Source: an uncultured Planctomycetia bacterium (GTDB lineage Bacteria; Omnitrophota; Gorgyraeia; 2-01-FULL-45-10; JAHFGN01). From it: a DNA stretch of 64,000 bases. Location: the NCBI GenBank assembly GCA_964354545.1, contig CAYHAE010000001.1, positions 65,190 through 129,189 on the forward strand, read 5' to 3'. The notes under the pieces were generated by a model. That model made no database searches. It saw only the letters and a list, made by a program, of their open reading frames with translations, and was not told where the DNA came from. Within the stretch, counting starts at the first letter, position 1, and every line of letters begins with the position of its first letter. Both the position numbers and the translations under genes were made by a program. Positions 13,957-16,469 of this stretch are shown here, one piece after another.

Positions 13957-14805
13957 ATGAACAGGAAGTCTGAGCTCAAGTTCGATGAGATTGGCTATTG
14001 GTCTGAGATGAAACTCGAGATCATCGACGCATATGCTCGAGAATATTCTAAGATCATGTCTTGTCAGACCAGTCCCTCCTTAGAGCATACATATATTGAC
14101 GCTTTTGCTGGCCCTGGAATACACAGATCCAAAGAAACGGGTGACATGATTCCGGGAAGTCCAGAAAAAGCTCTTTCGGTCGTGCCACCCTTCAAGAAGT
14201 ATTGTTTCATAGATCTGGACTCGAATAAGGCGGGTTATTTACATCAACGGTATGATCAAAATCCCACGGTGAGCATTTATGAGGGTGATTGTAATCATAT
14301 TTTGTTGAAAGAAGTGTTCCCCCGAGTGAGATATAGGGATTACAGACGAGGGCTCTGCCTCCTGGATCCGTATGGGCTACATCTTAAGTGGGAAGTTATG
14401 AAAGAGGCGGGCCAGATGCGGTCGATTGAGATATTTCTCAACTTCCCAATAATGGACATGAATAGAAATGTATTCTGGCTTAATCCGGACGGAGTAGATC
14501 TGAGCGACATCGAGAGAATGAATGCTTTTTGGGGAGATGCCTCGTGGCGCGATATCGTATACACTAGCAGACGCGATCTTTTTGGGTATATCGAAAAAGA
14601 ACCCAATCCGGTGATTGCCGAGAACTTTAGGGATCGGCTCAAGAAAGTTGCGGGGTTTCAGTATGTAGCTAAGCCATTGCCCATGAGAAACGAAAAAAAT
14701 GCGGTGATATACTACCTCTTTTTTGCATCTCAAAAACCGGTTGCTGCTAAGATTGTCGATTACATATTTGACAAATATGGGAAGAGGAGGTTTGATAATG
14801 GCTGA
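13957..14805 (+). CDS. three-Cys-motif partner protein (TcmP-like)
   Basis: About 280 aa. The gene is co-directional with the following Gp37/Gp68 gene and overlaps it by 8 nt. Its identity is inferred mainly from this conserved pairing. AT-rich. Confidence 0.4.
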   Translation: MNRKSELKFDEIGYWSEMKLEIIDAYAREYSKIMSCQTSPSLEHTYIDAFAGPGIHRSKETGDMIPGSPEKALSVVPPFKKYCFIDLDSNKAGYLHQRYDQNPTVSIYEGDCNHILLKEVFPRVRYRDYRRGLCLLDPYGLHLKWEVMKEAGQMRSIEIFLNFPIMDMNRNVFWLNPDGVDLSDIERMNAFWGDASWRDIVYTSRRDLFGYIEKEPNPVIAENFRDRLKKVAGFQYVAKPLPMRNEKNAVIYYLFFASQKPVAAKIVDYIFDKYGKRRFDNG

Positions 14806-15550
14806 GTATTCCTCGATAGAGTGGACAGACTCAACCTGGAATCCGGCAACCGGTTGCAGCAAGGTCAGTTTGGGATGCAAAAATTGTTATGCAGAGACCT
14901 TTGCGGAGAGGTTTCGGGGTGTCCCGCGGCATCCATTCGAGCAGGGATTTGACTTAAAACTGTGGCCAAATCGGTTGAGTTTGCCTCTATTATGGAGAGA
15001 GCACCGCATGATTTTCGTTAACTCCATGTCTGACCTCTTCCACGAGGACGTTCCCGACGAATTTATTGCGAAGGTTTTTGAGACGATGCTACAGGCAGAT
15101 CGTCACACCTTTCAGTTGCTGACCAAGCGATCGGAACGGATGGTGCGCTGGATCCAAAAACGATTCAATCGATATCTGGTACCGCAACATATTTGGCTCG
15201 GGGTTTCCGTTGAAAATCAGGAATATGTGCGGAGGATCCATCATCTACAGAGGATGCCGGCATGCGTCAGGTTTGTATCCTGCGAACCGTTGCTAGGCCC
15301 TATTACGTTCGATTCGCGGGACCTGAACGGAATACATTGGGTTATTGTTGGCGGCGAGAGTGGGCCCAAGGCCAGGCCCATGGATCCATTGTGGGCTCGG
15401 GATATAAAGGATCAATGCGAACAAAATGAAGTGGCGTTCTTTTTCAAACAATGGGGGACGTTCAACGCCCGTGGAGAACGGGTCGGAAAGAAAAACGCCG
15501 GAAGGGTTTTGGATGGCAAGGTATGGGATCAAATGCCGGCAATGGTCTAA
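14798..15550 (+). CDS. phage Gp37/Gp68-family protein (three-Cys motif)
   Basis: N-terminal signature [29 protein letters not shown] with C-x6-C-x2-C. About 250 aa. Confidence 0.65.
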   Translation: [250 protein letters not shown]

Positions 15551-15560
15551 GGGATGATCA

Positions 15561-16469
15561 ATGGATAGCCTGGTCGCCAAAAAATTTTATCTGAAAAAGA
15601 GAGAAGTCTCGGAAAAGTTAGAAAACGATATCTTGCAGACACAGCGTGAAATTTCTTCAAGAGGAACAATTCGCTCAAGCGTATTTTTAAATGTCGCTTT
15701 CAAGCTTATCTCAGAATCGGCAAGAGAAAATATTGATTCACTTCTAAAGATATATGAGGATGTGGGTATTTCTACAAGCGAGGAAACCTTTGTGATCGAC
15801 AAGGAAGCTGAGATAAAGGGCGAGGTCGAGAAACTTGTCCCGATTGAGGCCCAGCGGGTGAATGAGAAAATAGATGATTTGGCAAAAAGAATAGGAATAG
15901 CGCGCCCTCATGATGCCAGTTACGTATTTACTAACTTACAGGTAGAAGCGCGAGACAGGGCTGAGATTCTTATCGAGACGATACGGCGCCGTATTCAAAA
16001 TAAGCAACCTAAAAAGTCACTCACCGACGATGTCTTTGTTATCATGCAGATCGGCAATCCTCAGCTCGACAAGATCTGGAAAGATATATATGTTCCCGTA
16101 ATCGGAGATTTTAAGTTGCACCCGAAGCGAATTGATAAGCATGGTGAGGGTCGCTTCTTAATGAGCGAAGTAGCTGGCTATCTGAACAATAGTAAACTTG
16201 TCATTGCCGATTTAACCAACGCCCGGCCTAATTGCTATCTCGAGGTAGGTTACACATTGGGCGTCGATAAGAACAGCCACCTGATCCTTTGTGCCCGGGA
16301 AGATCATAATATGGATAGCCCTTGTTACAAAAGGGATGGACCTAAAGTGCATTTCGATATAAGCGGCTATGATATAGTGTGGTGGGATGAAAATAAGATC
16401 GACGATTTTAAGATAGACCTGGCCAAAAAGATTACTTATAGGTTAACAGTCATCGGCAGCCAGAAATAG
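15561..16469 (+). CDS. hypothetical protein with C-terminal SLOG/TIR-like (nucleoside 2-deoxyribosyltransferase-like) domain
   Basis: C-terminal pattern VFVIMQIG...LVIADLT...NPNCYLEVGYTLGVDKNSHLIL resembles the NDT/TIR-like fold. The N-terminal half is alpha-helical and has no match. AT-rich. Confidence 0.35.
   Translation: MDSLVAKKFYLKKREVSEKLENDILQTQREISSRGTIRSSVFLNVAFKLISESARENIDSLLKIYEDVGISTSEETFVIDKEAEIKGEVEKLVPIEAQRVNEKIDDLAKRIGIARPHDASYVFTNLQVEARDRAEILIETIRRRIQNKQPKKSLTDDVFVIMQIGNPQLDKIWKDIYVPVIGDFKLHPKRIDKHGEGRFLMSEVAGYLNNSKLVIADLTNARPNCYLEVGYTLGVDKNSHLILCAREDHNMDSPCYKRDGPKVHFDISGYDIVWWDENKIDDFKIDLAKKITYRLTVIGSQK

Follow-up and report, generated by a model that had tools for sequence, protein, structure and literature searches.

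A TcmP-DUF5131 gene pair followed by a TIR/NDT-like gene in an uncultured Omnitrophota bacterium: a candidate stacked defence islet

Background

The genes encoding TcmP (three-Cys-motif partner protein) and DUF5131 (formerly Gp37/Gp68) form one of the most widely distributed conserved pairs to which no function has been assigned, and in PADLOC they figure only as a candidate, PDC-M41, which like the related PDC-M30 is made up of a TIGR04474 gene and a PF07505 gene. DUF5131 is a curated subgroup of the radical S-adenosyl-L-methionine (SAM) enzymes, placed by SFLD/RadicalSAM.org in megacluster 5 alongside spore photoproduct lyase (PMC9477430). In S. meliloti a TcmP gene adjoins the Hna defence gene (PMC12445080). 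Among immune effectors, a nucleoside 2-deoxyribosyltransferase (NDT)-like protein has a precedent in the effector of retron Ec86, for which depletion of NAD+ or nucleotides was proposed (bioRxiv 10.1101/2023.08.16.553469). Here we describe a locus in which a TcmP-DUF5131 pair (genes g1 and g2) is followed by a third gene, g3, at positions 13957-16469 of a 64,000-nt stretch of contig CAYHAE010000001.1 (assembly GCA_964354545.1; positions 65,190 to 129,189), from an uncultured bacterium placed by GTDB in the Omnitrophota. This whole stretch is called the window, and its numbering is used for all positions at the locus. We read the locus as a small stacked defence islet of two separable modules, a reading to which we give about an even chance of being right.

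Results and discussion

A TcmP-DUF5131 pair and a third gene

Three open reading frames (ORFs) in one orientation together span 13957-16469:

13957..14805, plus strand: g1, TcmP, 282 amino acids (aa), with a predicted RlmJ-like class I SAM-dependent methyltransferase fold
14798..15550, plus strand: g2, DUF5131 (Gp37-Gp68) family, 250 aa, a predicted radical-SAM-superfamily-type three-Cys enzyme (PF07505, PDC-M41B, phrog_2045)
15561..16469, plus strand: g3, 302 aa, a rare family without a Pfam model, with about 20 full-length homologues and an AlphaFold2 model

The product of g1 matched the TcmP model TIGR04474 at 3.9e-57 (194.2 bits against a curated cutoff of 53), covering model positions 1-262 of 263, and the PADLOC model PDC-M41A at 2.1e-75. 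That of g2 matched PF07505 at 4.5e-104 (347.7 bits against a cutoff of 28.9), PDC-M41B at 2.1e-103 and phrog_2045 at 2.2e-103. Both components of PDC-M41 are hence matched by adjacent genes, in a search with hidden Markov models and not with the PADLOC system rules, and judged by these profiles the pair truly belongs to the TcmP-DUF5131/PDC-M41 class. The initial annotation, made from the letters of the DNA, had named both families correctly. The details of layout that it reported were likewise confirmed in the sequence, namely the 8-nt overlap of g1 and g2 (ATGGCTGA), the 10-nt gap between the stop of g2 and the start of g3, and the C-x6-C-x2-C motif of g2. A scan for promoters and terminators stayed at background level, with nothing convincing between the three genes, which are probably co-transcribed. 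The public, NCBI-sourced protein of g1 (P0254) is only 129 aa long and corresponds to residues 154-282, yet the 282-aa ORF is intact in the window, and the start of the gene appears to have been under-called in the public gene call.

Predicted enzymes of the pair

No Pfam model, those of methyltransferases included, matched g1, a search of PDB sequences with g1 itself gave nothing usable, and the best hit of the TcmP profile among them was KsgA at only E = 0.95. The predicted model of TcmP has the seven-strand, Rossmann-like fold of class I SAM methyltransferases, with the N6-methyladenosine (m6A) rRNA methyltransferase RlmJ as its nearest fold match, and after RlmJ and the ComJ-like LPL1258 the fold matches are hundreds of class I SAM methyltransferases. 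Two motifs could be located on the model and by conservation among 43 TcmP homologues:

14098..14118, plus strand: motif I, D48-A-F-A-G-P-G54, predicted SAM-binding glycine loop after beta1 (model strand 43-48)
14365..14376, plus strand: motif IV-like D137-P-Y-G140 after beta4 (model strand 130-136), invariant in the 43 homologues

In the same 43 sequences D48, F50, G52 and G54 of motif I are invariant, as are D86 at the end of beta2 and G110-D111 after beta3. In amino-methyltransferases the position after beta4 is occupied by (D/N)PP(Y/F). The TcmP model thus shows a glycine-rich motif I after beta1, an acidic end of beta2 and a motif after beta4, as class I methyltransferases do, and on this model the invariant residues are placed where a working methyltransferase needs them. 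TcmP is therefore predicted to be a SAM-dependent methyltransferase-fold protein of the RlmJ type, a statement that we did not find in the literature searched.

The cysteines of g2 lie near its N-terminus:

14855..14887, plus strand: C20-x6-C27-x2-C30, presumed 4Fe-4S ligands, invariant in homologues

These three cysteines and many other residues are invariant in 36 DUF5131 homologues. A match to TIGR04471 (radical SAM mobile pair protein A) is significant at 9.4e-17, yet falls below the cutoff of that model (61 against 355 bits). It is on this sub-threshold match, together with the SFLD/RadicalSAM.org curation, that we base the assignment of g2 to the radical-SAM superfamily, and the earlier suggestion of an Fe-S or other metal-dependent enzyme, made from the cysteine motif, is reasonable.

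Distribution and neighbours of the pair

At least 528 loci with TcmP turned up when 185,579 species-representative genomes were scanned, and more than 7000 TcmP relatives were found altogether. The best 80 loci, with 54-67% identity to g1, were examined and come from Omnitrophota, Acidobacteriota, Verrucomicrobiota, Chloroflexota, Nitrospirota, Planctomycetota, Bacteroidota and others. DUF5131 is present in 75 of them and is preceded by TcmP in 71 of these 75, as in the window. The two genes of the 71 same-strand pairs overlap by 1 nt in 45 cases, and in 70 they overlap or lie at most 35 nt apart. TcmP and DUF5131 are thus a tight and widespread unit.

The neighbours of the pairs vary widely. 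When Pfam families were counted among 35 tightly linked neighbours, ResIII was found in five and the N6_N4 DNA methylase in four, while HsdM, the HsdR C-terminal domain, nSTAND3, DUF4365 and a phage integrase occurred once each. At two loci (L045, 2975-10318; L064, 2505-10303) a ResIII helicase of about 1000-1170 aa is followed by TcmP, DUF5131 and an N6_N4 methylase of about 900 aa. This four-gene order was seen in metagenome-assembled genomes of Chloroflexota and Abyssobacteria, and at these loci the pair sits inside a type III-like restriction-modification (R-M) unit. Elsewhere HsdR lies directly upstream of the pair (L048) or an nSTAND3 NTPase directly downstream (L022).

DUF5131 is also present in 180 GenBank phage records, mainly of Mycobacterium and Gordonia phages, and TcmP-like genes in only five. 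In Gordonia phage BaxterFox (KU963263.1) a TcmP-like gene (42) directly follows the gene of the immunity repressor (43) and overlaps its stop codon, and DUF5131 lies alongside it, between integrase and repressor. In actinobacteriophages this position between integrase and repressor is typical of defence genes expressed by the lysogen. The BaxterFox DUF5131 is an unannotated match of 247 aa at 4001-4729 on the plus strand (49% identity, 4e-73), in a region where the annotation has three small hypothetical genes (39-41) on the opposite strand.

The third gene

For g3 no significant sequence match was found in Pfam, NCBIfam or PDB. Its full-length homologues, about 20 in number, share 50-69% identity, and in several hundred proteins of about 390 aa only the C-terminal domain recurs, where it stands at the N-terminus. 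The AlphaFold2 model (predicted local distance difference test, pLDDT, 87) consists of a four-helix bundle and then an alpha/beta domain:

15561..16004, plus strand: N-terminal four-helix bundle, residues 1-148 (helices 3-33, 40-71, 82-111 and 117-148), with a conserved MDSLVxKKFDLKK start
16023..16463, plus strand: C-terminal TIR/NDT-like alpha/beta domain, residues 155-301
16242..16244, plus strand: codon of Glu228, candidate catalytic nucleophile, within the block A216-D-L-T-N-x-R222-P-N-C-Y-L-E228-V-G-Y231

Very few proteins have this bundle, which formed 13 representative clusters in a set of 1.84 billion proteins. Three longer members (P0247, P0250 and P0251) have a divergent C-terminal part that is NDT/TIR-like by eye. 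The idea that the N-terminal domain is an adaptor carried by varied effector classes was dropped in view of the 13 clusters and of these three members, whose C-terminal parts all look NDT/TIR-like.

For the C-terminal domain, Foldseek returned TIR and NDT families weakly (best E = 0.017), and the model shows the TIR fold. The NDT family PF05014 matched weakly in 55 of 62 g3 relatives (best 6.5e-5) and in g3 itself not at all at E <= 0.5. PF10137, the TIR domain of CAP12/Pycsar, matched in 23 of the 62 (best 0.027), and the PADLOC 'Effector TIR' model matched a 50-residue stretch of g3, residues 201-250, at 3.4e-10. The likeness to NDT and TIR proteins noticed in the initial annotation is therefore borne out by the model. 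Its assignment to SLOG is not, since no LOG or DprA-type structure appeared in the lists of fold matches.

The block from A216 to Y231 is invariant in the 62 sequences, and in the model the helix after strand 211-217 has E228 as its fourth residue. The catalytic Glu of NDT, Rcl, MilB and TIR enzymes occupies this topological position. Rcl, which reads AEVTQPSLGVGYELG, can be paired with the block without gaps, and E228 then stands opposite the nucleophile of Rcl and R222 opposite its phosphate-binding Ser. The C-terminal part of g3 is modelled with a TIR/NDT fold and carries an invariant Glu.

Nine distinct contexts of g3 and its homologues were compared, the window included:

Window (L001 is the same sequence): g3 after TcmP-DUF5131
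L007/L008: hsdM, homologue (0-nt gap to hsdM, 8-nt overlap with hsdS), hsdS, then an OLD/GajA/AriA-like ATPase
L009: hsdM, homologue, hsdS
L092/L093: hsdM, a 445-aa protein with PADLOC matches to pAgo-associated domains, homologue
L097: hsdM fragment, a DUF4062/HATPase_c_4 protein, homologue (4-nt overlap with hsdS), hsdS
L004-L006: Dam-like methylase, a 180-aa protein that is PD-ExK-like by reading, N6_N4 methylase, homologue
L002/L003: homologue in a prophage-like region of small ORFs
L095/L096: homologue beside insertion sequence (IS) elements
L010/L011: homologue standing alone

The homologues thus lie inside type I R-M operons in four contexts and beside a type II-like R-M system in one. 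No g3 relatives were found in IMG/VR. The DUF4062 and HATPase_c_4 protein of L097 (554-2029) lies inside the type I R-M operon, directly upstream of the homologue, and a 2026 report described DUF4062 as a defence family of TIR-like NADases, under the name Swarozyc (bioRxiv 10.64898/2026.05.01.722283). In two metagenomic genomes a conserved block running from Formyl_trans_N to enolase and DivIC has different cargo just downstream, in one a type I R-M system with a g3 homologue (L007, 226-1883) and in the other a TcmP-DUF5131 pair (the 18.8-kb contig of P0121), and this site may be a shared hotspot for defence cargo.

Two modules or one system

The initial annotation had treated the three genes as one block and called for a survey of their co-occurrence. 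Among the 80 examined TcmP loci no relative of g3 was found, even when its C-terminal domain alone was considered, and neither TcmP nor DUF5131 was found at the eight other contexts of g3 homologues. The trio as a conserved system was rejected on these counts, and the window holds a one-off combination, unique among the loci examined. The three genes might nonetheless be obligate partners in a single integrated defence or DNA-modification machine, as their common direction, the 8-nt overlap, the 10-nt gap and the lack of a convincing promoter or terminator between them would allow. That view could also draw on g3 homologues lying always directly behind or beside genes for nucleic-acid methyltransferases, TcmP itself having the predicted fold of one. 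Besides the survey, it has against it that an unrelated gene stands downstream of the closest TcmP relative (73% identity) and that PADLOC models two genes only, and we consider an integrated three-gene system improbable.

Proposed function

Under the reading of two stacked modules, the defence flavour of the islet comes from the PDC-M41 candidate, from the neighbouring AbiE pair described below and from the R-M neighbourhoods of the relatives of its genes. That much of the defence module proposed in the initial annotation was retained, while the idea of a conserved three-gene module was given up. TcmP and DUF5131 would form a complex that acts on nucleic acid, with DNA the likeliest target, as is suggested by the relatedness of DUF5131 to spore photoproduct lyase, by its presence in phages and by the neighbouring restriction helicases and DNA methylases. 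The methyltransferase-like TcmP subunit would bind SAM and the target base, and the Fe-S subunit, DUF5131, would use radical chemistry either to install a non-canonical mark or to attack unmarked DNA, and the pair would then be analogous to a modification/restriction unit. The product of g3 would be an N-glycosidase whose Glu228 cleaves NAD+ or a (deoxy)nucleotide, serving as a second-line abortive-infection effector. It would be held inactive by, or triggered through, the upstream modification enzyme, following the logic of PrrC and EcoprrI with TcmP-DUF5131 here in place of HsdM.

A more general, speculative and rather unlikely version would make the whole g3 family a guard of modification enzymes, in which the bundle docks on a DNA-modifying complex (HsdM/HsdS, type II methylases or TcmP-DUF5131) and the N-glycosidase is freed when a phage disables that complex. 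If g3 does attach to TcmP-DUF5131 as such a guard, the pair would be a radical-SAM-based DNA modification or restriction system, that is, an R-M type with a new chemistry.

Several points weigh against a defence islet acting in this way. PDC-M41 is a bioinformatic candidate only, and in the literature searched we found annotation-level mentions and no experimental work on any of the three families. Many TcmP loci lie amid housekeeping genes, which make up the rest of the 35 tight neighbours, and the RlmJ likeness of TcmP fits an RNA target equally well. No solved relative of DUF5131 was found in sequence and profile searches of the PDB, and the CX6CX2C spacing of g2 departs from the CX3CX2C that is canonical for radical-SAM enzymes. 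The sequence of g3 stays below every Pfam threshold (PF10137, 13.1 bits against a cutoff of 24.7), and the comparison of its C-terminal domain profile with DNPH1 was insignificant (E = 2.3). Moreover, the HMMER alignment with DNPH1 sets the VGY strings in a register that differs from the one in which Glu228 faces the catalytic Glu, and for this reason the catalytic role of Glu228 stays presumptive. The contexts of g3 form a small sample of nine, and for its coupling to the pair the 10-nt spacing and the analogy are the sole grounds.

Two of these points, the housekeeping neighbours and the possible RNA target, would suit a metabolic explanation, in which the pair modifies rRNA or tRNA, g3 is a nucleotide salvage enzyme of the NDT/Rcl/MilB type and neither has an immune role. 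The distribution of the pair speaks otherwise, as it is patchy and crosses phyla at 55-67% identity, and pairs are found between restriction helicases and DNA methylases, in the prophage immunity region of BaxterFox and, for DUF5131, in 180 phage genomes. On the side of g3, translational coupling ties homologues into type I R-M operons, OLD/GajA-like and DUF4062 genes lie next to them, and the family, with about 20 full-length members and 13 N-domain clusters, is extremely rare and in this does not resemble a salvage enzyme. Such a purely metabolic role is in our view unlikely.

For the pair itself, the RlmJ-like methyltransferase fold predicted for TcmP, together with the position of pairs wedged between restriction helicases and DNA methylases, leads to the testable hypothesis of a two-enzyme, SAM-consuming unit for the modification or restriction of nucleic acid. 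The value of the finding is that a long-standing unknown pair becomes experimentally approachable, rather than a new principle. The few restriction-linked genes of abortive infection would gain a new type of effector in the third gene, which, via its partner, would also offer a handle on the role of TcmP-DUF5131.

Genomic setting

On its 5' side the islet is flanked by a 7TM-GAF histidine kinase, two response regulators (receiver proteins) and a GAF-HD-GYP protein, and on its 3' side by two paralogous 7TM-GAF-HisKA kinases. The nearby AbiE system pointed out in the initial annotation is indeed present, 4.8 kb from the islet, as a complete abortive-infection/type IV toxin-antitoxin pair:

21306..22704: AbiEi/AbiEii pair, the two genes overlapping at 21901-21914 (PADLOC: AbiEi 1.6e-44, AbiEii 1.9e-42; Pfam PF08843 2.2e-16)

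The guanine-cytosine (GC) content of the islet is 45.4%, against 51.7% for the HD-GYP gene and 49% for the kinases. The AT-rich block described earlier is thus only slightly richer in AT than its flanks. Over the whole window GC averages 49.1% (standard deviation 7.5%), and 28% of 2.5-kb windows equal or exceed the islet in AT content. The base composition of the islet is therefore not an outlier and its AT-richness is weak. The description of the block as 'mobile' or 'inserted' had this weak contrast as its sole basis and was not upheld, as neither direct or inverted repeats flanking the islet nor a tRNA or integrase were found. No tRNA, tmRNA or Rfam family was detected in 12000-23000.

The islet might also be a decayed remnant of a prophage or mobile element whose genes no longer form a functional unit, an alternative that the initial annotation had itself raised. 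Temperate phages, actinobacteriophages among them, commonly carry DUF5131, one g3 homologue lies in a prophage-like region of small ORFs and another beside IS elements, and the GC of the islet is slightly below that of its immediate flanks. Against a remnant, the three ORFs are intact and keep all the invariant family residues that were checked, no phage structural genes, integrase, transposase, tRNA or flanking repeats occur nearby, IMG/VR holds no g3 relatives and the GC is no outlier in the window. We regard this explanation as very improbable.

Some other features of the window are recorded here. A perfect palindrome with a 10-bp stem (the TCACAAAGATC-AGG-ATCTTTGTGA region) lies at 13846-13869, 6 nt past the HD-GYP stop codon, and may be a terminator dividing the signalling operon from the islet. 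The paralogous kinases (16833-18905 and 19081-21162) share 461 bp of exactly identical sequence (18396-18856 and 20653-21113) while their N-terminal halves are only about 50-60% identical, which looks like recent gene conversion or partial duplication. In both, the 7TM regions have about 35% GC and the kinase cores about 56%. A giant ORF at 24525-33068 encodes 2847 aa with Peptidase_C39 (residues 1668-1757) as its sole Pfam match and without a PADLOC match. The block at 6040-9208, with an amine oxidase and an Acyl_transf_2-methyltransferase fusion, is very AT-rich (GC 0.32; GC at third codon positions, GC3, 0.27) and deviates far more than the islet. The fusion gene and the next HisKA_7TM kinase are syntenic with positions 7124-10994 of L100 (GCA_040960375.1), where an integrase and a 387-aa protein with a g3-type NDT-like domain lie just upstream of the syntenic block.

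Comparison with known systems

The predicted enzymes of the pair can be set against better known families. RlmJ, a 23S rRNA m6A2030 methyltransferase, and the ComJ-like LPL1258 share only 13-14% identity with TcmP, which has DPY where RlmJ has DPPY, and unlike RlmJ TcmP is always paired with a predicted Fe-S protein. With the radical-SAM superfamily and TIGR04471, g2 has in common a three-Cys cluster near the N-terminus.

The C-terminal domain of g3 resembles NDT-like and TIR effectors (retron Ec86 (Eco1), the TIR proteins of Thoeris, CBASS and Pycsar, SARM1) and the metabolic MilB and Rcl/DNPH1. The N-terminal four-helix bundle of g3 was not found in these proteins, and unlike such effectors g3 has in the window no retron, cyclase or ThsA-type partner. 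In their placement, between hsdM and hsdS and translationally coupled, the g3 homologues are reminiscent of restriction-linked genes of the PrrC/EcoprrI kind. PrrC lies inside the EcoprrI locus. Its fold and chemistry are unrelated to those predicted for g3, an anticodon nuclease as compared with an N-glycosidase, and the guard logic is drawn by analogy only. Neither the g3 family nor its position within R-M operons seems to have been described before, though the fold class of g3 is a familiar type of immune effector.

The closest described kind remains PDC-M41 together with PDC-M30, whose two models are matched end to end by the pair in the window. The pair shares the order of genes and the tight coupling typical of this family. 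It differs from the family in its overlap of 8 nt, where 45 of the 71 relatives have 1 nt, and in the third, unrelated gene 10 nt downstream, which is absent from the 80 pairs examined. The pair of the window is a new member of this known and functionally uncharacterised candidate kind.

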